Part shown: positions 4,432 through 55,818 of the stretch, piece after piece
Layout: each line of letters begins with the position of its first letter
Position numbering within the stretch: the first letter of the stretch is position 1
NCBI RefSeq assembly: GCF_000004825.1
Contig: NW_008805068.1
Span: 1,925,471-1,989,470 of the forward strand
DNA: 64,000 nt
Reading direction: 5' to 3'
Source: Heterostelium pallidum
Taxonomy: Eukaryota
The notes under the pieces: model-generated
Database searches by the model: none
What the model saw: only the letters and a program-made list of their open reading frames with translations
Told to the model about the DNA's origin: nothing
Made by a program: the position numbers and the translations under genes

Positions 4432-4488
<57 letters not shown>

Positions 4489-6866
4489 TTATACAGAATG
4501 AAAAGAGAAATCTATTGGGTATTAAGAAATTAATTCAAAAGTCATTACAAGTCATCAATTTATTCTTGATTCTCTTACAATTTAACTTTCAACAAATCTT
4601 TGAAGGAATGGAAGGGTATGTTTTATAAAACAATCAACAACAATATAGTTAGCTATTTATTTGTTCATATTATTAATATACTTATTATCATTTACAACTA
4701 ACTATTTAGTTTGAGTCATGACGATAAACAAAAGATGTATCAATTTAAATTTAAAGACTATGTTCAAAATCAAACAGATTTGTCACCATCAAAGAATGTA
4801 CCTTCATTATTGATTGTATCTTGTATGAAGTTATTGAATTCATTGAATATTCAAGTAAGTTGTAAAAAAGTATTTAGTTAACCATTAAAATATAATATAA
4901 TATTAATAATAGTTTTTACTTGTAGATTGATAATGTAACTAGACAATTAGAATATGAATGTCCAGATATATTTAAAAAGACTGATAAACAATTGATTGTT
5001 GCCAAAGACAAGTTGAAGAATGCAATCAGAGATGGAAAGAGTCATTATACCGATCAGCTGGTGAAGGATGCACTTATGATTCTCGATGAGATCTCACCAA
5101 AGTTTGATCTCAATGAGATCATTGGATATCTTGTTGCCATCCAGTACTTTGAGTATATAGTGCCATTGGCATTGACATATGCCTCGAGACTAGATCCCAA
5201 CAACCTCACACAAAACCAAAACAACAAGCAATCGTCCGATCCATCAAAGGCCAACGAAGCAAAGGAGAAAGAAGAACTCAAAAAGAAAGCTCTCTTTGAA
5301 ATCTTCAAGGTCATCGATTTAATTATCAATGATCAAGATGATTTCGCATCAAAGGAATTCATTGATTATGTTAGTATAGATAATATTTGATAATCATTAA
5401 TTATCAATATATATTAATTTGTTTATCTTTTTTTCTTTCTTTCTTTTCTTTTCTTTTTATTTTAGATGATCAATCAAATACTAGCAAGTAATGATAGAAT
5501 CTGTCATGAAATGTTATATAGTTGGTTGTTAACAAATAATTTAGTTGATAAACTATTTGATGTAAGTTTGATTGTGATTTGCTTTTTATTAAAAGATTGA
5601 CCAATATTAATACCTAAACAACTATTATATATTTAGATTAAATCACCATATATTACAGAGTTTTTATATGAAAACGATATTGAACTTTGTTGGAAGCAAT
5701 TGGCAAAGAATTCACAGTTTGAAGATGCCGCCAAGATTTTAATTGAAATTGCAGAAAAGTATGTTGAAATGAAATCAATTTAATATTTATTTAATGACTA
5801 AAATAACTAATCAATAATAATTATTATCATTCAAAAAAAATAGATCAAAATTATTAGATAAAATTAAATGTTATACCAATTGTGCTTTGGTATTAAGTGA
5901 ATTAAAAGAAAATGAAATCTATTTATTTGCAAAGAGACAGCTTGTTGTAAGTTTGAAACAATTATCAAAACTACTTGGTTGATTATAAATACTAATCACC
6001 CGCCCTTTATTATCTTTATTTAGTTTTGTCAAATTCAGAAAAAGATTGTAAATCAGCTTTCTAATCTTTTGGAAAATAACTCTGTCGCTCCAGAACAAAA
6101 GAAGGAAATTAAACAAAGTTTAGATAATTTAAATGATAATATATATGATATTACAACTGTAAGTATTTTTTATAAACATTTCATCAGAAATCATAGTAGT
6201 TTATTAATATATATATCGTTTTGTTGAAAATAATAATTATAGCTGTTTACTGAGTATGCTAGAAAATATTTATTACATGAGGAAATGTTGTATTTGGTTC
6301 ATATTGGTAATCATGATGACCAACAGTTTGTAAAACTGCTCTGGAAGATCATCATTGAGAAGGAAGCACAAGAGCGTTACAGCGATGTCAATCAGCTGGT
6401 GGAGGCGTTGAAGACAAAGATCGTCAATATTGGCTACGATCTCTATCCAAATGATAGTACTTTCCCGTTGCAATCGATCGTCAATATCGCTGAGAAGACA
6501 GTGTTTGTCTATGGCGAACAGACACAGACCTCGGTGGACGACGCACTCTGGCTGATCCGTCCGTTGCACGACCAGGTCAAGATCGACTATTGGACACTGC
6601 TCGATCAGTACCGTGAGATCATCGAGGATCAAAACACATCGATCGAATCGAACGAACCTACATGGCGAACAAACACCGAGCGTGACTATCTCATTTCCAT
6701 CTTTATCACTCTGATCGAGACCATGTTGAAGTTATTCCCACCACAATCTGTTGAGCGACATGTCTTTAACACCAAGAGAATCAACTACACACTCCGACAA
6801 CTAAAAGATAAAGTATCTTCACAATTAAAATCAAGAATTGATAATTTAATAAAAATTCTAAATTAA
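1564..6866 (+). CDS. nup155: Nucleoporin Nup155/Nup170 family (13 exons).
   Basis: N-terminal poly-Q, then motifs matching human NUP155, for example IFPEIGKAWISIDQTLFLWDY versus [21 protein letters not shown]. Other matches are TDEGRIFVGGQDGNLYEIVY, AICSNGVRLYIS, and the C-terminal LLWKIIIEKE versus LWQDIIEKEL. Exons traced with GT/AG: 1564-2596, 2681-2958, 3047-3223, 3310-3774, 3863-4369, 4497-4615, 4710-4854, 4926-5369, 5466-5561, 5661-5758, 5844-5946, 6024-6158, 6243-6866. Phases are consistent throughout. A few acceptors have alternatives within 2-6 nt. Confidence 0.8.
4434..4487. repeat. (AAT)n microsatellite of about 18 units inside a Nup155 intron.
   Basis: Direct reading: ataataataata... 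uninterrupted. Confidence 0.9.
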
Positions 6867-12665: not shown

Positions 12666-12985
12666 ATAAATAAATGATTTTTCAGTTATAACTTTATGTA
12701 ATTTTGGTTTATTTGAATGATCACTCACTAAATACTCAAAATAGAACAATACAACTATTGATTGTTTTTGAAGCTTTGACTTTAAATTGACCATTTTTAT
12801 TGTTTCACGACAAAATTTTCTTTGAAACCAAGAAAATTTGTGTGATGAACAAACAGCATCGCTTTCAAAAAAATGTGAAGATATTAATTAATTAAAAATA
12901 ATATATATTATTTAAAATCACCACCTTTTTTTTTCAATCATTTATTCATAGTTTATTTTTTATCCAATACAATCAAACAAATAAA

Positions 12986-15469: not shown

Positions 15470-16246
15470 CATAATATTGTTTTGTTAATAAAAAATATAA
15501 ATATATTATTATGCTCTATCTATCGATCTATCTATCTAAAATAACCTTACCATTAAATTCTTATCATCAATTTGTAATTCATTTAATAATCTTAGAGCTC
15601 TTAATACACCTTCCGGTGAATCGAACTCACAGAATCCAAAACCTTTAAGTTTACCACTGGGATCGGATGCACGGTTCCACTTTACTACCTTTCCACAGAG
15701 ATCGAGTAACTTTCGAATAAAGTCATCTTCAACGGTCTCTGGTATCTTTCCTACATAGACTGTCGGTGTAATGGTTGCAGATGATGCTGTAGTTGTGGAT
15801 GACGATGACGACGACAAGTTTGAAGCATTAGCAGCAATCGATGCCGTTGCAGAAACAACTGGAGGTACAATCTTCATCATTGACGATTGATGATTCATCT
15901 GTTGCTGTTGCTGTTGTTGTTGTTGATGTTGTTGATGCTGCTGTTGTATATGATGTTTATGTGGTGTCATTTGTTTGTTTCCTAGTACTCCGGGTGGTCC
16001 GGGTGGTGTAGGTAACAATGGTGGAATCATCATTGGATGGCCACCGGGGAACCCAGGGAACATTCCGGGTGGTGGTGCCATCATTCCGTGGGGAGGTGGT
16101 GGATAGTTTGGAAAAAGATGTGGAGGTGGTGGAAACATCGGTCCTGGCGGAATACCGACACCTGGTGGTGGTGGATACTGATGTCGATGTGTTCCCGGTG
16201 GTGGAGGATGATGATGATGATATGAAGGTGGTTGATAAGGATTCAT
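13881..16246 (-). CDS. RNA-binding motif protein 25-like splicing factor (RRM + RE/RD/ER-rich region + C-terminal PWI domain). Exons 16246-15551, 15394-15187 and 15100-13881.
   Basis: The RRM (VYVGKIPETVEDDFIRKLLDLCGKVVKWNR...GFGFCEFDSPEGVLRALRLLNELQI) matches human RBM25 (VFVGNISEKASDMLIRQLL..GFGFCEYKEPESTLRALRLLHDLQI). The PWI region (KPWVNKKLTEIIGAEE..DEEAENFVLKMWRMLAF) matches the RBM25 C-terminus. The protein has a Pro/His-rich N-terminus and a poly-Q tract. Introns 15395-15550 and 15101-15186. Confidence 0.75.
14210..14340. repeat. (TTG/CAA)n trinucleotide tract encoding poly-Q in the RBM25-like gene.
   Basis: Direct reading: ttgttgttgctgttg... on the plus strand. Confidence 0.85.
15397..15476. 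repeat. (TAA)n microsatellite of about 26 units inside an RBM25-like intron.
   Basis: Direct reading. Confidence 0.9.
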
Positions 16247-16589: not shown

Positions 16590-18392
16590 ATGAAAAGAAA
16601 ACATCAGATTAGTAAAAGTTCAAATGATTATGATGATAATGATGAATTGCTACAACTTGCAGTGACACTTGATTATCATGAAAATGGCGAACAACAACAA
16701 CCACAAACAATTTCTCTCTCGTCAGGCGAATCACTTACGAAAGAACAGCTTCTGTTGAAAGTAATTGATCTGCATCCAGAATATGCTATTGCCTATTACA
16801 AGTTGGCATTGCTTCTTAAAAGAGACTATCGGCGATCATCTATCATTCTTCGATCTGGTCGATCAATGACTGTGCAAAAACTATTCATGAAATCAATAGA
16901 GTGTGACCCAACTCATTCCAATTCATATCATAAACTTGCAAATACTCTTTCAGGTGATGATGATAATGATAAATCAGTCGGACTTGGTGGAAAATCAATG
17001 ACTGTGCAGCAACTATACTTGAAGGCAATAGAATGTGATCCAACAAATTCCCGTTCCTACTATAAACTTGCAATTACACTTTCCGATGGTGAAACAATCA
17101 CACTTAATGATGGACAATCAATGACTGAGCAAAGACTATATTTGAAATCAATCGAATATGATCCGACCAATTCCAATCCATATCATAATCTCGCAACGAT
17201 ACTTTCAGATGGTGAATCAATCACACTTAATGATGGACAATCAATGACTGTGCAACAACTATACTTGAAATCAATAGAATGTGATCCAACAGATTGCAGT
17301 TCGTACATCGACCTTGCCAGTACACTTTCCGATGGTGAATCAATCACGCTTAACAATGGACAATCAATGACAGAACGACAACTTTACTTAAAAGCAATAG
17401 AATGTGATCCAAACGAATCCGATTCATATTATAACCTCGCAAAAGTACTATCTCGAAACGAATCGATCACACTCCATAATGGACAATCAATGACAAAACA
17501 ACAACTATACTTAAAGTCAATAGAATTTAGTCCAAATGATTCCGATTCATATATTAACCTCGCCAAAACACTATCTCGACATGAATCTATCACATTTAAC
17601 GATGGCGAGTCAATAACAAAACAACAATTATTATTGGAGGCAATTGAATGCGACCCAACCAATTCCAAACCATATCATAACATTGCAACGACACTTTTAG
17701 ATGGTGAATCGATCACACTCCATAATGGACAATCGATGACAAAACAACAACTGTACGTAAAGTCAATAGAATGTGAACCAACCAATTCCAAATCATATTA
17801 TAACCTTGCAGCGACACTTTCAAGAGGTGAATCAATAACACTTAATAATGGACAATCAATGACAATTCAGCGACTATATTTAAAGGCAATAGAATGTGAA
17901 CCAACCGATTTCAAACCATATTACAACCTTGCAGCGACACTTTCAAGTGGTAAAACGATCACACTTAACAATGGACAATCAATGACAAATCAACGACTAT
18001 ACTTAAAAGCAATAGAATGTAATCCAACCTACTCCCCATCCTACAATAACCTCGCAACTACACTTACTTTTAAGACATCAATCACTCTGAATAATGGACA
18101 ATCGATGACAGAGCAACAACTATACTTAAAATCAATAGAATACGATCCAGCTGATCCCGATCCATATTTTAACCTTGCAAATACACTATCTCTATACGAA
18201 ACAGTCACACTCCACAATGATGTGAAAATGACAAAACAACAACTATTATTGGAATCACTAAGATTGGATGATACACAAGCATCGGTTTTCAAATCTATTG
18301 GATTAACTCTTTTGAACAACAAACAAACCATTACACTTCCAAATGGTGAACAGATGTCAAGAAGACAACTAATTCAAAAAGCAAGAGAATAA
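16590..18392 (+). CDS. Tandem-repeat protein of 600 aa with about 14 copies of a 40-aa TPR-like unit. No recognisable orthologue.
   Basis: Single intronless ORF. The repeat unit is (SITLNNGQSMTxQQLYLKAIECDPTNSxSYYNLAxTLSxGE)n. The helix-turn-helix pattern ..LYLKAIE.DP.N..SYYNLA..L resembles TPR/Sel1-like half repeats. Confidence 0.65.
   Translation: MKRKHQISKSSNDYDDNDELLQLAVTLDYHENGEQQQPQTISLSSGESLTKEQLLLKVIDLHPEYAIAYYKLALLLKRDYRRSSIILRSGRSMTVQKLFMKSIECDPTHSNSYHKLANTLSGDDDNDKSVGLGGKSMTVQQLYLKAIECDPTNSRSYYKLAITLSDGETITLNDGQSMTEQRLYLKSIEYDPTNSNPYHNLATILSDGESITLNDGQSMTVQQLYLKSIECDPTDCSSYIDLASTLSDGESITLNNGQSMTERQLYLKAIECDPNESDSYYNLAKVLSRNESITLHNGQSMTKQQLYLKSIEFSPNDSDSYINLAKTLSRHESITFNDGESITKQQLLLEAIECDPTNSKPYHNIATTLLDGESITLHNGQSMTKQQLYVKSIECEPTNSKSYYNLAATLSRGESITLNNGQSMTIQRLYLKAIECEPTDFKPYYNLAATLSSGKTITLNNGQSMTNQRLYLKAIECNPTYSPSYNNLATTLTFKTSITLNNGQSMTEQQLYLKSIEYDPADPDPYFNLANTLSLYETVTLHNDVKMTKQQLLLESLRLDDTQASVFKSIGLTLLNNKQTITLPNGEQMSRRQLIQKARE
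16850..18310 (+). repeat. 120-bp-period tandem DNA repeat array of about 12 units (70-90% identity), in coding sequence.
   Basis: The recurring string ggacaatcaatgac(t/a)...caactatacttgaaa(g/t)caatagaatgtgatccaac appears at 17111, 17231, 17351, 17471, 17711, 17831, 17951 and 18071. The spacing is exactly 120 bp. Confidence 0.85.
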
Positions 18393-31440: not shown

Positions 31441-32240
31441 GGTCTTCAAAAGAACTCTACTACTATTAAACTACAACTATTATACAAAAATAAAATGGGC
31501 AAATTAAAAAAATTAAAAATTAAAATAAATATTTGTTATTATTATAATTATAATTCGATTTAATCTATTAACTATTTAATATGATTCCACTATCTATTCT
31601 ATTCTATTACAATGAATTTAAATTATAAACAACAAACTATTTTTTTATATTAAATTTTTAATTAAAAATTTTCAACAGACAGTTTTTTTTTAAAAAAAAA
31701 ATAACAAGATTTTTTAAATTGAAATAATCTTTATAAATCTTATAAAATTAATTAAAGTCTAATGAAAATGACAAAGATGGATAATCATAAACATACTTCA
31801 ATGTCGAATATTGAAGCATTATAAGAACTGAAATCACCAAGTTCGAATGTTAATATTATAAAAATTACCAGAACATTGAAACACTGTGAACACTCGGAGA
31901 AGATCATTAATAGGAAAGTTATAAAGAGTTTCACCTGTGATCAATTCTACCTGAGTAAAGTTACTTTGAAAGAAAGTTGTCAAAGTAGTTGGTGATTGTG
32001 ATGAATCTACTCTACCTGCGGTACAACTTAAAAATGAATCAATAACAATGTAAATGATAGAAGTTGTATTATTGTTGTTGTTTAGAAAAGAAAGACCAGG
32101 TAAAGGTTAACTGAAAAAACATATCATCGCTTTGAAGTATTTTTCTTTTTTATATTTTGGAGATTTCAGAATGACGATCTGTTTTCACAACTATCCACAC
32201 TACAAAAAATCAAAACTCGTTTGCATTTTTATGTAAAAAC

Positions 32241-32454
32241 GAAATATCTTTAAAGTTTGATATCTAGATAGTTATCTCATTAAAAGAACATTTTTTGTTT
32301 GTTTTTGGTGGGTCAATTTGGGTAAAAACAGAATTTTTTTGTTCAATATTTTTTTGATGTGAGGTGCTGGTTTGTTTTGAAATCATGATTTTACTCCTAA
32401 AAACATTGTTCCTTTGTTGGAGATAACTATCTAGATCTTTAAGTTTGATATTTC
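32241..32454. repeat. Composite inverted plus direct repeat pair flanking about 140 bp, lying about 80 bp upstream of the membrane-protein ATG. Looks like a small foldback element (MITE-like).
   Basis: 32241-32278 reads gaaatatctttaaagtttgatatctagatagttatctc. The reverse complement of 32420-32454 reads gaaatatcaaacttaaagatctagatagttatctc. They share an inverted core tctagatagttatctc/gagataactatctaga and a direct segment atctttaa(a)gtttgatat. Confidence 0.5.
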
Positions 32455-32531
32455 TTTTTTAAAATTCTTATTTGATTGTGATCTGCAAAATATTATCATT
32501 TGATATTTTTTTCAAAATAAAAATAAAAATA

Positions 32532-39934: not shown

Positions 39935-42900
39935 TTAAATATTTGGTATCAACTTTGATAAAGTAGATAAGAATAGGGGAACTAGTTTGTTGTGTAATCG
40001 TTTTTGATTATTTGATTTAAAACAGAGTGTCATGAGGAGTGTTTTCTCATTGATCAAGATCTCCAGTAGAAACAACGGACCATTTTCAATCTCTTGAGCA
40101 TAGTAATACAATTTGGTTACACCTGCAACACTACCGAATGCCAAACACATAATTCCTTTGCTAGTCAGTAGTTTCTCCATTTCATTTGTATCTATTAGTT
40201 TCTCTAATTGTATATCGAATCTATGACTATATACATATAGTTATATAAAGAATATCATTAATATTTACAACTAATAATAAATAATAAACATAATTAACTG
40301 TTTGTTGTAATTTTTTAAATTTACTTACCCTTCTTCAAAGTTTAACCAATTCTCTTGGAAATCCTCTGGTTGTATCTCTGTTTGTGATTCCAATGTAAAG
40401 TTATCAACTATTTGTTGTGATGATGTTTCGAATTCAAGTAAAAGATCTGGTGTTTGTGATTGCTGTGGTTGTTGTGATTGATGTTTCATTGTTGGTGATG
40501 ATGGAATTGAAGTCGATAGTGGTGATAATATAAGTGCTACAGATGTTGGTGGTTTGATATAAGAAGATGATGGTTTACCATAGATAATAGATAGAGTATT
40601 GAATTCATCGAATATCTTATCCTAATTATAATTTAAACAAAAGATTAGACAATAATAATAATATTATTATTAAAGAATTGCTATAACTTACTCTATATTC
40701 TAAAATTTCATCTTCTACAAATATACTGCTTTCATTCTTGTCGATCTTGGTATTGATTATCTTTGTTGCTTTGTCAATATCGTATAATAAAAGTCTGTAG
40801 TAGTAAAGACATTGATCTCTTAGTGCTGGATCGCAATCTATCGATGAGCAAGCTTTGAACAGTCTGAGTAGAATAGGATAGATCTCACCACTTGTTTTTT
40901 GATTGGCAAAGAGACGAGTACAAGTAGTAAGTAGCTGTATCTTTACATTGGTGGCGAGTGATGATTTGAATTTGTTGGGTGTCGTTGAATGATCATCCAA
41001 GAATTTCTCTATAATATATACAATGTTGGTATTACCATCACCACTATTGATGTTACCATGATAACGACTATCATCTTGATACTCTGCAAGCATCCAAAGC
41101 AACGATTCAATAGCATCGGAATCGTTTAGAACCAAAAGCTTGTCGGTAACAAGCGGTAATACCTTGGCAGCCGACTCTGGATAGACACGAAGATAGTCTT
41201 TCAAAGCAACCACACAAAAAGCAACAACCGTATCCAACCGATCGGAATAAAGAAACTCTAACAACACATCCAATACACTCTCTGACTTTTCCTCCAACGA
41301 ACAACCAATTGATACAATTGTATCTATAACTTCTTTTAAGAATGATATATCATTATTATTATTATTACTATTATCTACTATTGTAGAAGAATCATTATTA
41401 TTATTATTACTACTATTATTATTATTGTTATTGCTATTATAATTATAAGTATATACATATTCACTCAATTCAGAGAGAATATCATTTACAGTGGTATGAT
41501 TTACGAGATCTTTTAGTATTTTAACTTTCAACGATTTGATGTAGAGTGGATCTTTGTTTAGACAATAGAAGTAACGATAGTCTGGTTGAAACAATGTCGG
41601 TGCTCTACTGATGATCAAGTAGATATGTGATAGCACTGCATAGCTGATTTCATAAGAGTCAAACGTACTGCATTCCATCAATGTAATCAAAGGATCTTTC
41701 AATCTACCAAACACTTGTTCATGTATATTACTATCATTCTCTGTTATCTTTAAGAACAGCTTTACAATCGATAATACCAATGAACTATTTGAATATTTTA
41801 ACTTGTCATCAAAGAAGTTCTACAACATTTATTCAAAAGCAAAGACAACAACATTAGTAAATATATTCGATATTTTAATATTAGTTAAAACACCATGTTT
41901 ACTTACAAGAAAATCATATATTTCATCTTCATTAATAAGATTATAACGTTGAATTGTATTTACTATTGCGGTCTGACCCCATTCGTTTGCCTCTTTGAAC
42001 TTTGCCATTAGATGTCTTGTGACCTGTTGTGATACCTGCCAGTTTGGACGAATCTCATCGAGTGTGTATAGAGTATTGACTATTACCTGTGGGTCTTGAT
42101 CCATTATCATACCATAGACCTTTGGTATCAAATCGCCAAAAGTAGAGTCTCTCTGGTCTTCGGGTGTCACATGATACAGCTTCGCAAGACCGATCAAACC
42201 AGTCTTTCTAACATATGCAGAGGGATCACCAAGTGATTTCATAACACATTTAAATGAATATTCAAATGTTGTTTGTGAACTATAAAGTTAAACGAAATTG
42301 TTGTTTTCATTAGTCAATATTTTTGTTTGTTTGTTTGTTTATTAAATGTTTAACAATATACTTAAACTTACTCAAATGAACATAAACTTCTTAATGCTAA
42401 ACCTCTAACCATTGGATTTGAATCTTGAAAGTCAAGCTTTATTAAAAGTAATAAGTAAATTTAGAATGTAATTGAATAAAGTTAAATAAACATTCAGTAC
42501 TTACACATAATGTATTTATTACTAAGAGTAATAGTGAGTCGTTGTCACCGTGTACTGCATAGTGACATATGTAGAGGTATACTAATTTCTTGATGATTAG
42601 ATCGGTTGTGTTGACAACCATGATGATATCGGGGAACAACGGAGAGACATCGATACCCATTGTCATATAATATATAATACGTTGTAATGAAGATCTTATC
42701 TTCTCTCCATCTCTTTCATTCGATGCATTCTTTAGTAGATATCTTAACTCTGCAATCTCTCCTTTCTTCAAATCTGAAAAGTAATTATTGTTGTTTTGAT
42801 TATTTTGATTGTTTGATTCTGCTGCTGATGCTGATCCTATTTGTCTATTATTATTATTATTAGGAGAAGTATTTGTAGTGGTTCTACCACTTATATCTAT

Positions 42901-42954
42901 TCTTACACCTCCACTATTATCTCTATATGGTTGATAAGGTGTATTGTTTGACAT
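39935..42954 (-). CDS. Adaptor-protein complex beta-type large subunit (divergent beta-adaptin, AP-3/AP-4 beta-like). Six exons.
   Basis: The N-terminus FSDLKKGEIAELRYLLKN..IYYMTMGIDVSPLFPDII..KKLVYLYI matches the beta-adaptin start (KKGEIFELKAELN..MTVGKDVSSLFPDVV..KKLVYLYL). Later matches are DPSAYVRKTGLIGLAKLY, EWGQTAIVNTIQRY and the trunk. Exons 42954-42505, 42436-42372, 42279-41907, 41819-40692, 40621-40329, 40226-39935. The last acceptor could alternatively be 6 nt downstream. Confidence 0.7.
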
Positions 42955-43516
42955 TTACACCTGTTGTTGTTGTTATTGCTGTTATTGTTATTGTACCAAC
43001 AACATAAATATCAAATTTTTTATAAACAAAAAGCACAATTTAACAATTTACTAAATTTATTTCTGTTTTTCAAGAGAATAAATCAGTTCAAATGAATGGT
43101 TATCATTATGAAGAATATTTGTAAAAGTAGTTGCTATGCTATTCTCCAACCAGCAAAGTGACTAATAGAAATATGATAAATCTACATCACCACCAAATAA
43201 GCCACTATTCATGGAGTTACAAAGATAGCCACCTGGATAATCTGATGGAAGGGAATTGATATAAATAGTGAACTAAAATATTAATAACAACAACAACTCA
43301 TATTCATCTATTAAATCAACTAATTATTACATATAAATAATTACATCTAATACTTGTTCTTCTAATTAAATTATACTCTTTATTAATTTTACAATTATAT
43401 TATAATAAACTTATCTTAATTTATATATTCACATTGCTCTGCATAATTATCTCTTCATCTAGAACCTATCAACGTAAGTGTTATATACTCAATATCTCTA
43501 TATATATATATATATA

Positions 43517-43756
43517 TAATACGATAGTAGCACCAATATTAAAATATATTCTTATCGGTAACAAGAGACAACACCTTGGCGGCTGACTCTGAATCATTAA
43601 AAGCAATCATCTTTCATTCGATGCATTCTTTAGTAGATATCTTAACTCTGTAATCTCTCATTTCTTCAAATCTGAAAAGTAATTACTATTGTTTTTAATT
43701 ATTTTTATTGTAGTTCTACCACTAATATATAGGTGTATTGTTTGACACTAACACTG
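43517..43756 (-). pseudogene. Degenerate, internally deleted partial copy of the beta-adaptin 5' coding region, fused to an exon-4 fragment. Lies about 560 bp upstream of the parent gene in the same orientation.
   Basis: 43611-43756 aligns to 42711-42960 (ctttcattcgatgcattctttagtagatatcttaactctg..., ..aggtgtattgtttgaca) with two internal deletions and ATG mutated to GTG. 43551-43600 aligns to 41139-41190 (cttatcggtaacaag..ccttggcggctgactctg versus cttgtcggtaacaag..ccttggcagccgactctg). Confidence 0.7.
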
Positions 43757-43866
43757 TAGATATTCTTATTTTATCAACAATAAATAATAAATAAAATACA
43801 GACAAAATGATATCTAAGAAAGGTTGATCTATTTGAAATGTCTAATTTATTTTATTAACTTTATTT

Positions 43867-43893
<27 letters not shown>

Positions 43894-43897
<4 letters not shown>

Positions 43898-45652
43898 TCT
43901 CCAAGGTTGGCGTGATATTCCTGTTGATCTGGAGAAAAGGTAGAGTTTGCTGGAGGAGTAGTATCCATTGGCTCCGCAGTTGCTGGAGAGGAGTAGTAAT
44001 TATAGTGAGCGTCGGATGCCTGAGTTTGGTATAGTTGAGTGCTATGGATATCATCACAGAAGAACTGAGGATCAAGAACTTGGTTACACTCGTCGAAGAA
44101 GGAGGTTTGAGCATTTAATGTTCTTTGGTTATTTGTTGTTGTGGTTGTTGTTGTGGTTGTTGTTGTGGTTGTTGTTGATGATGTTATTGTATCAGCAGGA
44201 GCTGGGGTTGTTGGTCTGGTTCGGCATTGAGGGCAGTGGATAATCGATTGGTCAGGGACTCCCTCACCAAGAGGGAAACCGTTACCATCATGATAACCGA
44301 GACGGGGTAACTTAAATTTGATATCATGAGTTTGATAGACATATCCAGAGAAGACTGGAATAAAAGAAAATTGTGGCGTTATACCCAACATTTGATCTTG
44401 TTCTATGTTTGTTGAATATCTACATTTCCGACAAGTTATTTTCACTTCCATTGCTGTGCTGTTACTATCTCCCGTCTTGAAACGATCGCCATACGTCTTT
44501 AGAACTACAGTATTTTGTAGAAGAAGACCTAGTAAATGAAGCCTCTTTGAAAGAAGATCGTTCACTCTCTCTAAAAAGTTGTCAAATTCTGCTATTTGTT
44601 TCAAATTCAGAGAGAAATTGGTCGGATTGCATCTTTCCAATTTTCGTTCGAGTCTTTGGAAATACTTTTTCTCTTCTGTATACGGATCTTGAACTCGCTC
44701 TTGGTTTTTCTGTTTCTTTGGTGTAATGTGGTTCAAGAAGTAATGGCAAAATTCACACCATCCCTCCATCTGATGATATTGATTTCGATCTGGTTGGTGA
44801 CAGATGGGTTTAATATATATGACTTTTGGATTCAGTAAATCAATAGTGTTGTTTATGATTCTGTGACCTCCACTGACTATGCTGCCACAAGCAGACTTCT
44901 CCAGTGTTTCAGAATTGATTTCATATGCAGAAATCGTAAAATTAAAGGTGCCGGTGGTAAGCCCTTTGACTAAGGAATGAATCAAGGTGATGGTATGCTG
45001 ACGGGGGCCATTGTATTGAAAATCGAAACTTTCATTGGATATCTTGATACCACAGTCTAAAGCTAAATTACCTCTAATAGCCTTTCCTTCCGGCAAGTCA
45101 CTGACAATGAATAGAAAAGCAACCTTTCCATTGGGGATTAGTTTCAATCCTTGGGTGATCACCTTGAGGGTTGCATTGGAGGGAAACTTGACTACATCAT
45201 TGACAGATTGGAATGTTGTCGGTGTTGTTGGTGTTGTTGGTGTTGTTGGTGTTGTTATTGTTGTTGTTGGTGTTGTTGGTGTTGTCGGTGAAGCTTCAGT
45301 CTTTTGAGATTTGTTGGGCTCAGGTTCTTTGTCTGTTTCTTGCTTTCTCTTACCAGGAGGAAATGGAGGTGTAACTTCAGTCATTTCATTATAATACAAT
45401 TGATTTGAAGTATTGGAGTGATCTTCATTCTGTTGACTTGTTGAAGTGTCATTATTAATATAACACAATTGATTATTATCAAAATTTGAAGTTTGGTTTG
45501 GATCAGGCTGCGATGATTGTGAAGGGGCTACCGGCAAACAGTTAATAGGTTCGGAATTCGAAAGATCGTATTGGTGACCATCACGTTGTTTGAATCTATC
45601 AAATTGAAATTGATTATTAGCATCAGAGGTGGAATCTATTTCATTGATGCTA

Positions 45653-45699
<47 letters not shown>

Positions 45700-45888
45700 A
45701 CCATCAGAGGTGGAATTTATTTCATTGATATTATCATTATTAACACTAATACCAACAAAGGCAGAATCTATTCCATTGTTGTTATCGAGGTGGTTGATAT
45801 CATTATTGACACTATTACCACCATCAACGTCGCTCTGTGGTTGATTCAGGAGTTTTTGAAACTCGAAGGCTTCGTCAATTTGAGACAT
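43894..45888 (-). CDS. Hypothetical protein of about 664 aa with N/T-rich tracts, a Cys/His cluster and two CxxC pairs (zinc-ribbon-like). Function unknown.
   Basis: Long single minus-strand ORF. First ATG at 45888 (MSQIDEAFEF...); the ORF-track start at 45915 is TTG. Cys/His motifs: KPICHQPDRNQYHQMEGWCEFCHYF, ITCRKCRYS and IIHCPQCRTRP. Contains (AAT)n-encoded poly-N and a PTT(TPTT)n repeat. Confidence 0.55.
45652..45697. repeat. (ATT)n microsatellite encoding poly-N in the minus-strand ORF.
   Basis: Direct reading. Confidence 0.9.
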
Positions 45889-46669
45889 AGTCTGATGTGC
45901 CTCGTTCGTTGTCAAAAGAAAAAAAGGTTTTAAAAATATATATATATTAAAATCTATATCTATATAATTATTTATTTATATTAAAGAAATAAATTATGTA
46001 TGATAAGCAATGTGAAGAATTGAACATATCTATTAATATTAAGAAAAAACTTAAAATTATCGATTTTTTGATGGGGGTTGTGCTACCACTCACCAAAAAT
46101 GATAAATGGATCATCAAATGGATTTTTTTTATTTTTTAACAAGCAAAGTTTTTTTCCATTTCCGAGTCGGCACGATAAAACAGCCTTTAGTCACCTGTTT
46201 TCTTTGATTAGTTATAAAATTGAATTTATTTAAAATTGAAAATGGGTTTTTGGATAGATATTTGTTGAAATTTGGATTGATTTTGAAATGATACTTACAC
46301 CCAATCAGATATTTCTCTGATTTTAGAGATTTTTGACGATTTGAAAAAGCTCAAAACTTTTTAATGCTTGTTCAAGTTCAATATTTAAAGTCTCGATGAA
46401 ACATAACCAATAGGAAGCAGAATTAATACCTTTGAATGGTGCTATCAAATTCATACCTCGTTCATAATTATACTAACTTTTTTCATATGAAACTTTTTTC
46501 TAATATTAACATAATATTTATAATAATATAATTGATTTTTTTTTATTTTTTTTTTGCTTTTTAATGATTAATTTTAAACTAGTTTGTAAGATATTAGATA
46601 TTCGAATGACTCGAGTATCGGATAAATAGAAAACGGGTTGGGTGAGAACGGTCCACGATGAATATAATC

Positions 46670-46890
46670 TCCAAATTAAACTATCATGGTATCTTTATAA
46701 ATAAAATAAGTTATACATACAGGTGATTGAGAATAAAGTATGTGTAGAGAATATTGATGAGTATATTGTTTATATCATAGATATCTTCTACCACCATGAA
46801 ATCATCCAGAGTTCAAGTGTCTGAATAATATTCTAAAGTTCCTTTCTAATATTTATATCTTTATCTGATTGATATAGTTTCTAATAAAAA
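46670..46890 (-). pseudogene. Degenerate partial copy of P4-ATPase fragments (intron 5/exon 5 junction region plus the exon 3 5' end). Lies about 400 bp downstream of the parent gene.
   Basis: 46741-46790 (gtgtagagaatattgatgagtatattgtttatatcatagatatct) matches 47990-48040 (gtatagagaatgttgatgaggatattgttgatttcatcgatgtag). 46690-46730 (tttataaataaaataagttatacatacaggtgatt) matches 47868-47912. 46854-46888 (tctttatctgattgatatagtttctaataa) matches 50631-50660 (tctttatctgattgataacgtttctaataa). Confidence 0.6.
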
Positions 46891-47256
46891 ATAATAAAAA
46901 AAATATCAAATCTACTGATCGATTACTCTAACTACCTAATCTTAAATATCCTTCTCTAGAATAATTGATATCTAGGTATTACAAGTTTAAATGATGACTA
47001 TAAAGACTAGTTGTTTTGAAAGTTTGTAAACTATTATATCAATTGGTAATCAACTAAATTTTTAATTAAAAATTCAATTTTTTAACAAATAACCTAAAAG
47101 TTAAAGTTTTTTTAGATATTTTACAAAGTTGTATTGGGTGTCTATGAAAACTTATTTGTTGAAAAAAGTCAATCAAGAGTTCTACTCATATGATACAGGT
47201 AATGATGTGGGTGTAAATGATCATCAAATCACCTTTTATATTTTATTTATTTATTT

Positions 47257-50200
47257 TAATTGTTTCTTTTTTTCTTTTCTCATTAATTCTTGAGCGATAT
47301 GAAGTGGTTGTGGTAGATAGTTTCTCTTTACACTGTTGCAATTAATACAGAAAAATAGAACAATAGTTGTTAGTGGGTTGTTTGATAGATATTTAAAAAG
47401 ATTCGAAAAATCATGATTAACTTACAAAATAGTGAAATATACTGGTAAAAGACAAATAACTACGGTAACAATCACCGCTAAATAGAAAGCTGGCTGTGTG
47501 AGAAGGTTTACGAAAACCATATAGTAGTAGAGGTTACCAAACATCGATGCGAGGAAACTGTATGCTATTTGGAAGACAAAAAAGAATGCAATCGAGACCC
47601 AAGTAGCCCAGTGTTGAACACGATTCCAAGAGTTGACAGTCAATATCAACATCAGTTGAATCATCAATGTCAAAGCAAACAAAGATGCTGCCGCCTGTGA
47701 CCACAATCCACCTATCTTTCCATTGGATCCTGTCGGTCCATCATCGAAAACACTGGACATCACATAATATATTACAACGGAGCAATAGATTCCATGTAAT
47801 ATCCATGTTGAAAATATTTTCCAATTAAACTATTTTAAATTAATATTATTGTTATTTAAGAAATTCTTTATAAATAAAATAAACTATATTTAACTATACA
47901 TACATTATCACCTTTTTGAGTTTCTTTAAATAGAATTGGATATTTCTTTAAGAATTTCGGGTGGATATCTCTGTCGGTGACTGCATAAACAATGATTGGG
48001 AATGAAGTATAGAGAATGTTGATGAGGATATTGTTGATTTCATCGATGTAGGTCTGTCCTGAGAATTGTGTGTCAATGTTGAACCAGAGTTGCAGTAAAA
48101 CGGTGGCTATATTCTTCCAGAAGGAGAAACAAAGCAGTGTTGACAGACGTTTGAAGTTATAACGACCGTGCACCAGAAGTAGACGTTCGAGGAAGCAGAA
48201 CTGTGAGATTGCATAGTCCGATGCGAGTACTGCTTGTCTACCTTCGAATCCACTGATACCGATACCGACATGAGCAATCTGTATCATACTGACATCGTTT
48301 GCACCGTCACCAATAGCGAGAGTAACACTGCTAGTTCTATCCTTGACGATACGTACTACCTCACTCTTTTGGAACGGTGTAACACGGCAACATACAACGG
48401 AATTGACATTTTTAGACAGCCGGTAGAATGCATCCTCCACCTCTTTATCCTGGAACATAAACACCATTGTTGGACCATCGATAACAATAGCGTTTTTCTT
48501 CTCAACATTGCTGTTCTCATCGGCACCAACGCCAACACTTTCCAATTCCTGGAGATATTGGTTAATTTTAGCAAGAAGTAGATCCTTGTTGTTTTCATTA
48601 AGAATCATGAGGTCTTTGGAATCCAGTAGATTACAAGATATTCCAATGTTGATGGCAGTCTCTTGTTTGTCACCGGTCAACATCCAAATCTTGATTCCAG
48701 CTTTCGAGAGTGTTTTAATTGTCTCTGGAACGTGTTCTTGTAGTCTATCTTCAATTCCAACGACACCAAGGAAATGCCAACTCTTCTCAATCTCCAGAGA
48801 TACCTCTGAGATTCTTTGACTACGATTGTTAAGTAAGAGATTGGCTTCTTTCATTCGTTGTGACCATGGACCGTACTCCTCAGCGGTAACAATTCTCTTG
48901 GCAACGCAAAGAGTTCTCAAACCCTGACAGGAGAACGAGTGGAGATTATCTTGATTCAGCTTCACCATTGGCATGCTGGAATCGGGTGCCAACTGCGATA
49001 GAATAGCAGAGTCGGCACCTTTGCAATAGAGAATGATATCATCGGTATTATAGTTCTTTACAATAACAGACATTCTCTTTCTATCACTTGAAAACTCTAG
49101 AACATTCAACAACTTGTACTCTCTTTCCTCACCCAATACACTGATACCCAAATGAGCAGGTGTTCTAGTATGAAATTTAACACCTGCACTTGAAGCTTCC
49201 TTTACCAATGCAATTTCATCTGGTGAAGATGATGAATATTTAACTAATAACAATACTATTAATATCTATTTCTTATCTGACTTTTAATATTATTAGTTTA
49301 TACATACTTTTACCTTGATCATCAACAGATTCTGGAATTACAGTATGGCAAATAGCAAGACCTAAAAAGAAATCTAAACTATCTGGATCATTTAAATCAA
49401 TCTTTGGAACTATTGTTTGTTCATTTGAACTAACTGGTGCTTTTGATTTTGAAAGATCTGTCATTCCAATTGAATTACTACTCATCTATAATTTAAATAT
49501 TATTGAAATATATAAAGTTAGTTAGTCAATGAATATATATTCAACTTTTATACATATAATAAATATTACATACAAGTTTATCATTACCAAAATCTTCTTC
49601 TTCTTCATTTTTGAAACTTGTTGAAATTAAATTTGTATTAATATGATCATGATTTGTTGTTGGTTTTGAAGAAGTGGAACTAATTTCTAATGATTGATGA
49701 TCTCCTTCGCTTGGTCCGTAGATTACACCATTGACACTGCAACGTTTGAATTCCATTTGATTTCTGGTAAGTGTTCCTGTCTTGTCAGAGAAGATATACT
49801 CAACTTGACCTAACTCTTCGTTGAGATTGGATGTTCTGGCTTTTGCAAATGTCTTTGTTTCCTCGTGATACATATGCTTGTCTTTGTTGATCGATACCAA
49901 CTGGAGTACACGTGCCAACTCCAAAGAAACATACAACGAGAATGGAGCGATAGTTGCAAACAGTACAACATACGTAAAGAATCCTTTGAGTGTCTCCAGC
50001 GAGTAGTTGGTACTGAGATCCAGATACCACTGACCGGCACCTCTCTCCTTCTGATAATAAGTGAAACCAAGCAGTGAACATAGCAAACATAAGATAAACT
50101 CAATGGTGAATGCGAATATCAAGATGTAATTTACGGTGGAATCCATTCTGCTACGCTTCGACGGTGTCTCCTTGGTGTTCAACATGTATTTGGTTTGATG

Positions 50201-51282
50201 GCCGGTGTATGTCACCACGCCATAGATCACCTTGGTATTCATGAGAACGGTTCCACGAATTAGCAATTGATCGAGACTCAAGGAATAAGGTTGGTTATTG
50301 ATGGACATCCGACCGTTGAACGAAGTCAGACTGACTGAGGGTGCTTCATACTCTAGGATTGCACGGAAATTTGAGAAATCTACAGAGTTTTGCAAGTGGT
50401 TGGTCTCCATGAGTGATTGTTTTGACTTTAGACTGGTTTCACCATCGAGATTCGAAGTCTCTATGAAGCACATGCCTGGCGACATCTCACCGCTACTCGA
50501 AAGCAGCACTAAATCCGCTGGGAATTGCTCGGCATTTCTAACGACCACAATATCTCCAACCATCAAATTCATCCATAGCTCTTGTGTTTCAACACCTTTT
50601 CTAATGACATTTGCTTTTCTATTATTTATTTCTTTATCTGATTGATAACGTTTCTAATAACAATCAAATATAATAGTTAGATTCAATTCAATTCCAATAT
50701 TTATTTTGTATTCAGAATCAAATCAATTGATTGTGATTGATTGATTGATTGATTGATGAACTATACTTACGAAATCTTCATAGGCTTCTTTAGCAGCATT
50801 GATACCAATTACCAAGACCAAACCAAATATACTTCCACCAGGTTTATTTGGTGATACATCTGTAAATGAAATGATAACTATAAAGAGGAAATAGAAATTG
50901 GCTATTCTGGTAAACTATGTTTTTTGAGATATATAAATTGGTTAATTGTCAATTTAATAATAAAAAAAATGATCACTTTGCGAATTAAAATTTTTGGCCA
51001 CTTAAAAACTTTAAGTTTTTATATATCTCGATGGTCGATGCATTACAATGATCAGGTTATAGGGTGCATATTGGTGTGTGTTTGTGTGTGTTGTGTAATT
51101 AATGAATGAACACTTACTTGTTGAAAAAGGTTTTTAGGTAAAAAAGTCAATAGAGTATATTTAGAAGTAGCGATATAGTTATTGACATAAGGGCTCTTGG
51201 TTGGTGGTTGTTCTTCATCGATGATAACTCTTCTTTCTCTAGTATCAGGCTTTTTACTGAATAACTTTTTAATTTTATCCAT
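47257..51282 (-). CDS. Phospholipid-transporting P4-type ATPase (flippase). Seven exons.
   Basis: N-terminus TSKYTLLTFLPKNLFQQ|FTRIANFYFL. Also DKTGTLTRNQMEF, TGDKQETAINIG and GDGANDVSMIQ.AHVGIGISG. Exons on the minus strand: 51282-51118, 50914-50771, 50653-49574, 49485-49314, 49243-47904, 47829-47426, 47332-47257. Phases are consistent. The exon-5 donor GTATGT at 47903 was chosen over GTGATA at 47911 to preserve frame. Confidence 0.8.
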
Positions 51283-52734
51283 ATTTAACCAAAAACTAGC
51301 TTATAGTACTGTTGTTGTTGTTTTAGTATACTATTTTTGTTTTTGTACTATATAAAAAGTGCTATTACTAATCTGTCTGTGTCTGTGTTGTGATAATAAT
51401 ATTAAAATACTGTTACAAAAAAGAAAATTACAATAATAATAATACAATATAAATTAAAATACATATAAAATAGATTTATGATTTTGTTTGACAACGTAGG
51501 TGTGTCAAAACTACTTGACTCTGATTGATTTACAGACTGAGACAAACAAGACAACTAAACTCCTATCCTATCAAGTTCCATCATTAACAACAACAAAGGA
51601 GTGTTTATTCCTCTTTTGCAAATGGTCATCTGAGGTATTCAACGTAATCTCAAATACTAAATCTCTTGAAAATGAACACCATTGGTATTTTCCTATGAAC
51701 GTTTAAAAAGTATTTGCATTCTATAATCATCATCAACTGTGTGTGTTTGGTGGTGGTGGTTTGTTTCGATAATTATAAATAAATAATTTGATTGAGAGGT
51801 GTTGTTTGTTTTTTTTGTTTTCATTTTTCGTTGTTCCTTTACTTAAAAAACACTCATACACCACCCATACAAAACAAACTCTTTTTTTCACCTGAGTACT
51901 TGATCAGAGGTTTGGTTGAGAATTTCATCTCGATTGTTGGGTGATTATATTTTTACCATATATATATTGTGAAAATATAAAAATAAATCTCAATTCCAAA
52001 AAAAAAAAAAAAATTCAAAAAAAAACATGTCAAAATCCCTCTTATGATTTATCAAAATAGATAGTTTTTTTTTAGAATTTTAAAAATAAATATTTTAATT
52101 TACCATCAAAAACTGTTTGCTTTTTGGTGGACAACACAGTTTATTTATAATTCTACACAATGGTTTTCTCCTTTCTTATTGATTCTTTTTTTTTTTTTTT
52201 TGCTTTCTGATTTCGGACACGCACGGTTTTTTAGCAAATCAACAAAACAGATATTTTTAGTTTCATCGACCAATCACATACTTATTTTCGTTGTTAACAA
52301 TCACTCGCATTATCATAATTAAAAATATTTATTACCAAAAGAATAGTTTCAAAATAATTGTCATTGCCTCAGATTGGTAATTGTTTTACATCATTATCAT
52401 CTAGTTTGTTTAGCTATTACATGTACTCTATTTCAACAAGTAATTTACACATCATAGCATATTCATATGAAATCATCTTTGAAAAACATTGTTTAAAGAT
52501 ACATAGTCTTTCTTTTTTTTTTTTATTGTTAATAGTTAATAGTAATAATACCTTTATCACTATTGTAATCAACTGATTTGTGTTATTTTTCTTTGTTGTG
52601 TTTAATATAGAGTTTTCGCAATGCTCCAATGGTATTACAACAAAGATGAAGGGGGAATAGGGTTGTTAATCAATCAATCAATTGATTGACTAGTTGATTG
52701 TTTAAATGATTAGATGATTAAAGAATATAGTTGA

Positions 52735-53621
52735 TTATTTGATTTTCTTCATTTCGTAAATGAAATAACCAAAGAATTCACCGATTGTAGTAACTTTGAT
52801 TTCATCCCAGTTCTCACGTGTTATATATTGACGACGGAAATGAGGCTGGCCAAATGAAATATAGATAAAGACACCACCGACCTTCAATATACGAACTACT
52901 TCATCTACTTCTTGCTTTACGTCCGACAAAACATTCTCTGCTGGACTCCACACATCTGCACCACTAAAAAACGTATCCATAGTGGCCTTATCCAAAACTA
53001 CATCGAACGATTCATTTTCAAATGCTTTCATATCTCTAATATCCATTTCTAACCCTGTATACGATGTATTAATAATAAATAACCATGTTCTTTTATATCA
53101 ATCTAAAAACAAACAATCTATCTTTCTATCTATATCCTATTTACATTTCATATTAACTTTATCTTTTGATTTCTCAGACATTGATTTAATTACATTGGAA
53201 GAGTAATCTACATTTGTTATGTGATGATAGCCGTCGTCGTACATGTCATCGCCAAGTGTACTGTTTCCACATCCCAACATCAGAATCGACATATTCTTGT
53301 CGGGAATGACTTTACTGAAGTAAGGCTGTAGATCCTTGTATGTTTTTAACCAATCATATGTAGTATCAGACTCTCTGATGATTGATTTGATCAAATAGTC
53401 AATAAATATTAATATTTATAAAATAAACAAAAAAAAGAGAGAAAGAAAGCTTAAAAGCTAGATAGATTTTAGAGAAAAAGCTATTATAATATTTATTTAT
53501 AAAGATCTTTTTTTCGTTATGTTGTGAGATGTATATTCAAATATTACTTTTGGTAACGCTCCTCCCAATATTCATGTGTTCTATATACTCGTACATCTTT
53601 TGGTACGTCTTTAGATGACAT
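52735..53621 (-). CDS. Class I SAM-dependent methyltransferase of the EEF1AKMT4/ECE2-MT type. Exons 53621-53548, 53374-53145 and 53054-52735.
   Basis: YWEERYQK|ESDTTYDW..ILMLGCGNSTLGDDMYDDGYHHITNVDYS (motif I). Then ..K|WLEMDIRDMKAFENESFDVVLDKATMDT and GGVFIYISFGQPHFR, matching the human ECE2 MT domain ([47 protein letters not shown]..PHFR). Confidence 0.7.
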
Positions 53622-55101
53622 CTTTTCTTATAATCCTTAATGAATACAATAATACAAACAAATAGTAAATAAAAAATAATCAAACTAGTTGTTTTTTTTT
53701 TTAAAACGAAAGGTCGTGTCCTTCCAAATCTTTTGATAACTTTTTTATTTTATTTTGGTGGTTTGATATTTGGTTGATGGCGAACACTCAACTCAAGTCT
53801 AGGTGGTTTTTTTTTCAATGATTCTTCTCATTTAAAAATTTAGTTAACTTTAAAATGTCAATTAAGATTATATTAAACTAGGTTCTTTATTTACTCTTTT
53901 TTATTTGTTTTGTTTTTAAATATCTAAAATATCTTTATAACATAGTTATAAATATCAAATTCGAGTTTACAAAAAAAAAAAAAAAAAAAATTAAATAATG
54001 AGCGATTATCATCATTGTCATCAACATGGATGATGACACTTACAATCATTGTTTTTTTTTTCATCATCACAAGTGAGTGGACTTGTTTGACACCAAAGTA
54101 CAAATCAGTCAAAACAACAAGAGGAATTGAAGTGTAGAAATAATCCGTTCGTTTTTGAAAGAATCTCTATAGAAACACCCTCTAAATTTTACGATCAATC
54201 GAATTTATTGGGTAGAGAATCAGCTGATTTTGTTTTGTTTTTTTTTTTTGGTTCTTGATTATTTACTTAATCGATAAAGGAGGTGAAAGTGTGTGTGGGG
54301 TAAATGAAATTGCTGAAAAATTCGTTTCATTGTTTTTGGTTAAATACCTGATTGATTTGATTTTAAATGAGTTGCATGCACATGTGAGTTGTGCAACAAC
54401 ACCTGACTCTACTCTAAAAGAACAACAACAAGAGTGTTGTTTGTTTTTATTATTTTCTTCTCACTTGACTTTTATCCCAAATTGAATAAAATTTGTTTAT
54501 AGATGAATAAGCAACAACCATAAAAAGAACAACCATAATCGCATCAATCAACCTAATCATTCCTTTAACAAACAAAAACACACACACACATATATATATA
54601 TATAAAAATACAAACAAACAGATTATAATAATAAGATCTGATTTTACATATTGTCTTTTTTTTTTTTATTTTAATAGTTGTGTTTAAACAAACATTTACT
54701 TTTAAGTTCAAGTTCAGTTCATCACTACTTTACTCGCAATAATATTTATAATCACTCAAAATATATATATTGATTTAGTATAAATATATATTTATACACT
54801 ATTTGTTATCTATTTATTTTGTTTAATAATTGTATGTCTCACCATCTTACATTCGTTTATTCATTGGATAGTCGTTTTTTATTAAAGGAAGTTGAAGATA
54901 CCTAACATTTATTTATATTTACTATAGTATTTATTACAATAGTTCTATTCTATTATATTATATTGTATACGATTCTTATATTATCTTTTTCATTCTTCAT
55001 TCTTCATTCTTCTTTTAATTATTATTTCTAATTCTCTCTTTTTTTTTTATTTATTTTTTCTTATAATATAAAAATTAATATAACAATATAACAAAACTAA
55101 T

Positions 55102-55818
55102 ATGATGATGAACAAGATTAAAGCTGCATTGTGTTTCACGGGTGGAAAAGATTGTACACTGGCGTTACACCGTGTCAGCACCAAGTATAATGTGGCGATG
55201 CTCGTGACGTTTGCGCCACGCTCAGCACAGCCGTTCCGTGCACATCCGCTGCATCTCATACAGCTGCAAGCCGAAGCACTCGATATTCCGCATCGTGTAC
55301 TTCTTGTCGACGGTCCCGACTATCTGGGCAGCTACCGCAAGCTGATCCGACAGCTTCGCGAGGAGTGCGGCATCGAAGCGCTCGTCACCGGTGACATCCT
55401 CGACGTTTGCAACAACTTTATGGGTCGCGCCGTCGAGACGACCGGAGTGGAACTGGTGCGACCACTCTTCCAGCAGCCACGCCAAGAGATTCTCGACGAC
55501 TGCTGGAGTCTGGGATTCGATATTCTCATAACATGCGTCAACAACTCCAAGTTTGACACTGGATTCGACGCGTCACGACTCATGGTCGGACACCGACTGA
55601 CCAACGAACTACTGAATCAGGTGCGCGACTACAACACCAAACAAAAATCGATTGGCGAAGTCGATTTGGCCGGTGAATTTGGTGAATTCCACACAATGAT
55701 CATCGACTCACCACTCTTTAGACAGAAAATATCTTACGAAGCTGAACCCGTTGTAGACGGCGACTTTACATATTTAAATTTTAAAAGTACAATGTTATTA
55801 GATAAATACGATTGTTAA
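55102..55818 (+). CDS. Stand-alone PP-loop ATPase domain protein (ATP_bind_4 / MJ0570-like, i.e. the N-terminal domain of diphthine-ammonia ligase Dph6). Intronless and GC-rich.
   Basis: KAALCFTGGKDCTLALHRV (SGGKDS-type PP-loop) and the HLIQLQAEALDIPH..GDILDV pattern. The 238-aa ORF covers only the ATPase domain, without the YjgF/RidA modules of canonical eukaryotic Dph6. GC is about 55-58% by eye, against under 20% in the flanking intergenic DNA. Confidence 0.7.
   Translation: MMMNKIKAALCFTGGKDCTLALHRVSTKYNVAMLVTFAPRSAQPFRAHPLHLIQLQAEALDIPHRVLLVDGPDYLGSYRKLIRQLREECGIEALVTGDILDVCNNFMGRAVETTGVELVRPLFQQPRQEILDDCWSLGFDILITCVNNSKFDTGFDASRLMVGHRLTNELLNQVRDYNTKQKSIGEVDLAGEFGEFHTMIIDSPLFRQKISYEAEPVVDGDFTYLNFKSTMLLDKYDC

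Follow-up and report, generated by a model that had tools for sequence, protein, structure and literature searches.

A degraded partial copy of the AP-4 beta gene, probably left by tandem duplication, upstream of its intact parent in Heterostelium album

The window analyzed in this study is a stretch of 64,000 nucleotides (31.8% G+C) from Heterostelium album PN500, the dictyostelid once named Polysphondylium pallidum. The genes and open reading frame around which the observations below are arranged are as follows.

39935 to 42954, minus strand: AP-4 beta gene, parent of the adaptin relic, six exons, product of 866 aa (spliced model matched to EFA80508.1)
42954-42505, 42436-42372, 42279-41907, 41819-40692, 40621-40329 and 40226-39935, minus strand: AP-4 beta exons 1 to 6
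43894 to 45915, minus strand: ORF X, 673 codons, first ATG at 45888 (664 aa), lying between the two relics
47244 to 51282, minus strand: P4-ATPase gene, parent of the sister relic, ATG at 51282 and stop at ~47244 (open reading frames and tblastx)

From end to end, the 866-aa AP-4 beta model is identical (100%) to EFA80508.1, [quoted passage not shown], so the gene that a first-pass annotation of this DNA had called beta-adaptin encodes the AP-4 beta subunit. The parent gene is intact, its reading matching the annotated protein at 100%. Among the 5.8 billion proteins searched, the next-nearest protein is the Acytostelium orthologue at 53% identity, with no closer relative of the H. album protein found. 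The P4-ATPase gene is orthologous by tblastx to an Acytostelium gene with PhoLip_ATPase_N/C Pfam domains and is of the phospholipid-flipping type.

A 940-bp spacer separates the stop codon of ORF X (43894) from the AP-4 beta start. Within it, at 43551-43793, six pieces of the parent gene lie in strict 5′-to-3′ parent order and in parent orientation, ~100 bp past the ORF X stop and ~560 bp before the parent ATG. The first-pass annotation had described an internally deleted "skeleton" copy of the adaptin 5′ coding region about 560 bp upstream of the adaptin ATG in the same orientation, and both the distance and the orientation are correct. The pieces were found by filtered self-comparison, iterative local alignment and large-gap alignment, and were scored against dinucleotide-preserving shuffles. 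They are listed here in parent order, followed by one tract that had earlier been counted among them.

43761 to 43793, minus strand: piece 1, 5′ flank, parent 42983-43017 (score 19.5 against a null of 12.3 ± 2.0; 3/2000 shuffles)
43732 to 43754, minus strand: piece 2, start-codon region, parent 42938-42960 (21/23; 92% as a repeat family)
43710 to 43731, minus strand: piece 3, exon-1 codons ~19-26, parent 42878-42899 (19/22)
43606 to 43711, minus strand: piece 4, the main block, exon-1 codons ~48-82, parent 42709-42812 (92-93%, blastn)
43597 to 43609, minus strand: piece 5, short exon-4 block, parent 41200-41212 (11/13; 39/2000 shuffles)
43551 to 43594, minus strand: piece 6, exon-4 interior, parent 41139-41182 (36/44)
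43506 to 43523, no strand: "piece one" of the first-pass annotation, (TA)n-type low complexity outside the relic, overlapping palindromic TA runs

Piece 4 is one of the very few non-trivial repeats in the filtered self-comparison of the whole window, where blastn recovers it with E values of 1.8e-36 and 2.3e-38 under low-complexity filtering. Elsewhere in the window, a unit of 123 bp (41 codons) is repeated in tandem 9.8 times at 76% identity over 16988-18187, presumably as a repeat-domain coding region, and a 45-bp inverted repeat (82%) has its arms ~140 bp apart at 32234-32278 and 32420-32461. Pieces 2 and 3 of the relic jointly score 25 against a null of 11.2 ± 1.8, and piece 6, which is coding (..SESAAKVLSLVTDK against PESAAKVLPLVTDK), scores 28 against 12.2 ± 1.4; in both cases 0/300 dinucleotide shuffles reach the observed score. 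Parent exon 4 is also the best match of piece 6 within the whole window once low-complexity sequence is set aside. Piece 5, which accounts for the 15 nt separating the exon-1 and exon-4 pieces, is suggestive only as parental exon-4 sequence. Taken as one collinear chain, the relic scores 121 against a null of 28 ± 5.5, with the opposite strand reaching 40. Identity across the four strong blocks is 171/191 (89.5%).

These values bear on the most trivial reading of the locus, that the likeness is due to chance, low complexity or an assembly artefact, which we consider scarcely credible. The genome is AT-rich (32% GC), and one claimed component, "piece one", is indeed of low complexity: its alignment (43506-43523 against 42665-42681) pairs (TA)n/ATAATACG sequence and is reached by 13/300 shuffles in a search space narrowed post hoc, so that its assignment to adaptin is withdrawn. 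The remainder stands against such an explanation, with E values to 1e-38 under low-complexity filtering and 0/300 shuffles, and collapsed or duplicated reads would not yield ~10% divergence together with indels. A blastn comparison of the copy with the adaptin gene, which had been proposed as a check, likewise gives a match beyond low complexity (E to 2e-38 with the filter on). Without "piece one", the only piece out of order and attributable to chance, the supported pieces are all collinear, and the copy is a skeleton of its parent rather than a scrambled "mosaic". The exon-4 fragment reported as the second piece is real (36/44, 0/300 shuffles), but its parental match ends at 41182 and not at 41190.

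On the 5′ side, homology extends ~60 bp beyond the start codon (3/2000 shuffles reach the score of this extension) into sequence that may be 5′ UTR. The flank upstream of the relic (43757-43893) as a whole shows no significant similarity to the parent promoter, 50/300 shuffles reaching its score, and only its proximal 33 bp match. On the 3′ side, comparison of 43000-43550 with the rest of the gene beyond piece 6 returned AT-rich matches at chance level only, and the 560-bp spacer at 42955-43516 showed no homology to the 3′ part of the gene (18/300 shuffles reach its score) or to the flank upstream of the relic (50/300).

Five gaps separate the six pieces. Between the 5′ flank and the start region, 22 bp are gone, namely the (AAC)n tract at parent 42961-42982. 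Pieces 2 and 3 are separated by a 38-bp deletion (parent 42900-42937) and pieces 3 and 4 by one of 65 bp (parent 42813-42877), and these two are the internal deletions that had been recognized within a single third piece. The largest, ~1.5 kb between pieces 4 and 5, takes out what was left of exon 1 together with exons 2-3, introns 1-3 and the initial 600 bp of exon 4, and a net 15 bp are missing between pieces 5 and 6. In total ~1.64 kb are absent through five deletions, and the 243 bp that are left of a 1.88-kb parental span correspond to ~13% kept and ~87% gone. By a rough arithmetic, ~5-8 indel events stand against ~190 substitutions expected over the original 1.9 kb, a ratio of ~0.04. At such a ratio no special process is necessary, and the copy owes its odd look to how large a few of the deletions are.

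The long junction between exon 1 and exon 4 runs from parent 42709-42712, which is 204-207 bp before the end of exon 1, to 41212, so it falls in the interior of both exons and away from splice sites. This is relevant to whether the relic could be a retrocopy, made from an AP-4 beta transcript that was aberrant or partly degraded, that landed beside its source gene. Such an origin would account for the absence of intron sequence from the adaptin relic, which had been noted from the start and which we confirm, and for a relic that starts near the likely 5′ UTR. The junction, however, does not respect splicing, exons 2-3 are missing along with the introns, and the 3′ end of the relic carries AT-rich sequence and a (TA)n run instead of poly(A). 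The window repeat search reported no flanking direct repeats, the position in tandem beside the parent is not that of a retrocopy, and the sister relic described below contains intron sequence. A retrocopy is therefore highly improbable and in our view effectively refuted, in keeping with the earlier statement that this is a decayed tandem duplicate or a template-switch product and not a clean retrocopy.

The relic is disabled in several ways. In place of the parental ATG it has GTG at 43746-43748 in piece 2, as had been reported, and a stop follows eight codons later; about seven stops occur in 68 codons, and every frame contains stops. The lost start is joined by a GGA to TGA change in piece 4 among further replacement changes, by junctions that break the frame, by the five internal deletions, and by the lack of any sequence 3′ of mid exon 4. 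No ORF was found within the relic. The description of an internally deleted, probably non-functional copy of the adaptin 5′ region is supported, the copy being collinear with and adjacent to its parent, ~10% diverged, and devoid of a start codon or open frame. Disabling lesions and significant homology to a functional parent, as expected of a duplicated pseudogene fragment, are both found here.

A fragment without coding capacity could still be retained for another role, and candidates would include sense/antisense or small RNAs targeting AP-4 beta, promoter or insulator activity, and a gene-conversion donor for the 5′ end of the parent. The main block is 93% identical to the parent compared with ~85% elsewhere and contains a 39-bp perfect parental match, and each relic follows closely on a stop codon, a position in which transcription by read-through is conceivable. 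Simulation, on the other hand, gives a perfect run of 39 bp a chance expectation of P = 0.12-0.28, which makes it ordinary, and the difference in identity between the main block and the other pieces is not significant (p = 0.096). Changes in the main block are mostly replacement and nonsense changes. In piece 6, five of the eight differences are synonymous, which is uninformative on selection with n = 8 and a parent lineage that itself adds synonymous changes only. The window repeat searches returned no inverted repeat, inverted partner or foldback/hairpin involving the relic, no Rfam family scored in the window, and no ORF is present in the relic; the window also holds no tRNA gene, and neither of these searches hints at a target site for mobile elements. 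A hairpin small-RNA locus or proto-miRNA born of an inverted duplication was considered and set aside, the adaptin copy being direct and touched by no inverted repeat. On sequence grounds there is no evidence of constraint or gene conversion acting on the relic, which is probably without function, and a retained functional element would seem very unlikely.

A second degraded copy lies 3 kb away, beside the P4-ATPase gene, where the first-pass annotation had already pointed to a similar structure. The structure is real and it contains intron sequence.

46526 to 47169, minus strand: P4-ATPase sister relic, ~75 bp downstream of the stop of its parent and on the parent strand (collinear chain)
46692 to 46715, minus strand: core piece, parent 47865-47888, intron sequence reaching the GTATGT donor
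46724 to 46782, minus strand: core piece, parent 47993-48047 (tiled self-search)
46781 to 46890, minus strand: core piece, parent 50550-50663 (tiled self-search)
47144 to 47169: weaker piece, parent 51106-51131, exon 1/intron 1 junction, 23/26 (1/300 shuffles)
46916 to 46970: weaker piece, parent 50750-50804 (9/300 shuffles)
46564 to 46658: weaker piece, parent 47413-47513, covering another exon/intron junction (3/300 shuffles)

The obvious core of the sister relic is ~200 bp (46692-46890), and weak collinear pieces stretch it across the entire P4-ATPase gene, of which a copy of ~3.9 kb has shrunk to ~650 bp. The chain scores 125 against a null of 33 ± 8 (maximum 57), with the opposite strand at 21. 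Cross-controls were null, the spacer between ORF X and AP-4 beta scoring 25 against the P4-ATPase gene and the spacer between the P4-ATPase gene and ORF X scoring 25 against the adaptin gene. The 5′ end of the sister relic and its counterpart in the parent are 3.96 kb apart, which is the geometry of a simple tandem copy without the promoter and the greater part of exon 1. Because the sister relic holds intron sequence and an exon/intron junction, the P4-ATPase sequence was copied from genomic DNA and not from mRNA. For the adaptin relic, an origin at the DNA level would follow from the match in the 5′ flank and, by analogy, from its sister.

The two relics are not equally diverged, and the sister relic is probably the older. 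Identity in the sister relic is 150/190 (~79%), and its mismatches (40/190) exceed those of the adaptin relic (20/191; Fisher p = 0.005), though unequal substitution rates of the two parents could contribute to this difference. Because the divergence differs, we regard the two relics as separate, ordinary events and the data do not require the recurrent local mechanism that had been suggested from two cases in one window.

The same observations can be set against assembly of the adaptin relic in a single step. In this scenario, a replication end that broke or stalled within the spacer would have been repaired by serial template switching along the nearby adaptin gene, by MMBIR/FoSTeS or as polymerase-theta "filler DNA", copying six stretches that later diverged by ~10%. 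Short abutting parent pieces do account for all 243 bp, with possible microhomology of 0-5 bp blurred by the 10% divergence and an ACAA microhomology at the 42877/42813 junction. Every template is within 2 kb, and a second patchwork is found 3 kb away. Templated-insertion products, however, often hold inverted or shuffled pieces, whereas the supported pieces here are all in parent order and orientation and the lone piece out of order is due to chance. This strict collinearity favors duplication followed by deletion over a scrambled patchwork of template switches. The P4-ATPase relic, moreover, covers the whole 3.9-kb gene with plain tandem-copy spacing, the difference in divergence between the relics (p = 0.005) makes a single complex event unlikely, and ordinary indel rates suffice. 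We therefore assign a low probability to one-step assembly, while noting that progressive deletion and one-step skipping have an identical end product.

Gene order around the two relics adds a further consideration. In Acytostelium subglobosum (DF837589.1, 8939-17936; L001), a diphthine-ammonia ligase gene (minus strand), AP-4 beta (plus strand) and the P4-ATPase gene (plus strand) are all adjacent. Along the minus strand of H. album, on which AP-4 beta and the P4-ATPase gene read in the sense direction as in Acytostelium, the ligase (55102-55818) comes first, followed by a methyltransferase-like gene (52735-53394), the P4-ATPase gene with its relic, ORF X, and the adaptin relic with AP-4 beta. 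AP-4 beta and the P4-ATPase gene are consequently neighbors both in Acytostelium and in H. album (39935-55818), in swapped order and, in H. album, with both relics between them. In the Cavenderia and Tieghemostelium loci compared, the P4-ATPase gene does not adjoin AP-4 beta. Tandem duplication of an AP-4 beta/P4-ATPase block with random loss was tried as an explanation of the swap and rejected: it predicts an AP-4 beta relic upstream of the P4-ATPase gene and a P4-ATPase relic downstream of AP-4 beta, and these comparisons scored 32-35 against a null of 28-39.

The reading frame enclosed by the relics is 2 kb long in a genome whose composition would produce stops about every 13 codons. ORF X has the poly-N, poly-T and PTT runs typical of dictyostelids and several CxxC motifs, and it matches no Pfam family. 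Homologues were found neither by word-indexed search with the full protein or its 334-aa core, nor by an exhaustive phmmer search of 1.84 billion representatives. Its exact sequence is missing from the protein collection, while neighboring H. album genes are present. ORF X looks like an orphan and may be unannotated. It also contains a direct repeat of ~53 bp (45609-45661 and 45691-45742, 88%, 82 bp start to start) in an N-terminal Asn-rich segment, "...INEI(N/D)STSD...". The relics bracket a 2-kb ORF with no homologues exactly where AP-4 beta and the P4-ATPase gene have exchanged positions, and both could be read as scars of one complex replication-based rearrangement, by serial template switching, in which a gene was moved and a lineage-specific ORF X arose or was caught between partial copies of its new neighbors. 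We regard this possibility as quite improbable.

Related dictyostelids had been proposed as a place to look for similar fragments beside the same genes. Adjacent relics were not seen at the Acytostelium, Cavenderia and Tieghemostelium loci examined. In Acytostelium, a candidate pair (12899-12957 and 16136-16192) was dismissed as CTCA-type low complexity, and the repeats of the Tieghemostelium locus are palindromes only, with no relic among them. Cavenderia fasciculata GL883021.1 (L002) contains a 116-bp direct repeat (4336-4451 and 6327-6441, 84%, E 7e-30), with one copy at the 3′ end of, and the other well inside, a gene model whose 945 aa are spread over 5.4 kb. This repeat was rejected as a relic since it resembles the common C-terminal tail of neighboring paralogues, and the repeat probably consists of the alike tails of tandem paralogues fused in one model.

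Taking the evidence together, the adaptin relic is probably a direct, adjacent DNA-level duplicate, an unprocessed pseudogene fragment that was whittled down by neutral deletions. A tandem duplication would have taken in AP-4 beta as far as mid exon 4, together with ~60 bp or more of the adjoining 5′ flank. The upstream copy, truncated or otherwise redundant, would have been dead on arrival and hence free to decay. Five deletions (~22, 38, 65, 1500 and 15 bp) would then have taken ~87% of the 1.88-kb span, while ~10% of the leftover bases changed, the start was lost, nonsense codons arose and junctions broke the frame. The end product would be the 243 bp seen today in a 940-bp spacer that runs from the stop of the upstream ORF to the promoter of the intact gene. 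We infer that the deletions came later than the duplication and did not accompany it. The earlier observation is in this sense mostly confirmed, and its interpretation as a decayed duplicate is supported.

The adaptin relic fits a known kind, the duplicated (unprocessed) pseudogene fragment, and is notable only for how small a remainder is left. Katju and Lynch reportedly described "partial" newborn gene duplicates in C. elegans in 2003, and partial duplicates beside their parents are common among young duplicates of other eukaryotes. Like other unprocessed pseudogene fragments, the relic is a partial, direct, parent-adjacent copy, probably made at the DNA level and dead on arrival, that would then have gathered substitutions and deletions. 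It differs from them in its extreme internal deletion, with ~13% left as a collinear "skeleton" rather than a recognizable truncated gene. It recalls filler DNA and templated insertions (polymerase theta, MMBIR/FoSTeS) in its short stretches that match nearby sequence and abut directly, but its pieces are collinear, co-oriented, old and diverged, and the geometry of its sister is that of a tandem copy of a whole gene. The Dictyostelium tgrBC allorecognition locus also has partial gene fragments next to their parents (PMC12745789). There too, in a dictyostelid, a gene and its neighbors have complete as well as partial duplicates alongside the parents, yet tgrBC is a hypervariable multigene family whose fragments are proposed to recombine back into active genes (PMC12745789), whereas here AP-4 beta and the P4-ATPase gene, the two parents, are housekeeping genes in single copy and show no sign of exchange. 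In animal mitochondrial spacers, relics of tandem duplication and random loss have been described (PMC5122201). They resemble the present case in that degenerate gene remnants sit in spacers where gene order is altered (A-P in Acytostelium and P-X-A here, for AP-4 beta, the P4-ATPase gene and ORF X), but the H. album arrangement, P p′ X a′ A with the relics as p′ and a′, does not fit simple duplication of A-P followed by loss, and the genome is nuclear.

By itself the adaptin relic matters little, being another decayed partial duplicate. Its presence is a caution for annotation, since gene-like fragments can sit in spacers. The P4-ATPase gene, the orphan ORF and AP-4 beta make up a small region that has seen local duplication and a change of gene order. 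Counted across the genome, relics of this sort could yield deletion-size spectra and duplication rates for dictyostelids. With 13-17% of their original length left at 10-20% divergence, the two relics exemplify the speed and thoroughness with which dead duplicates are deleted in a compact, AT-rich dictyostelid genome.
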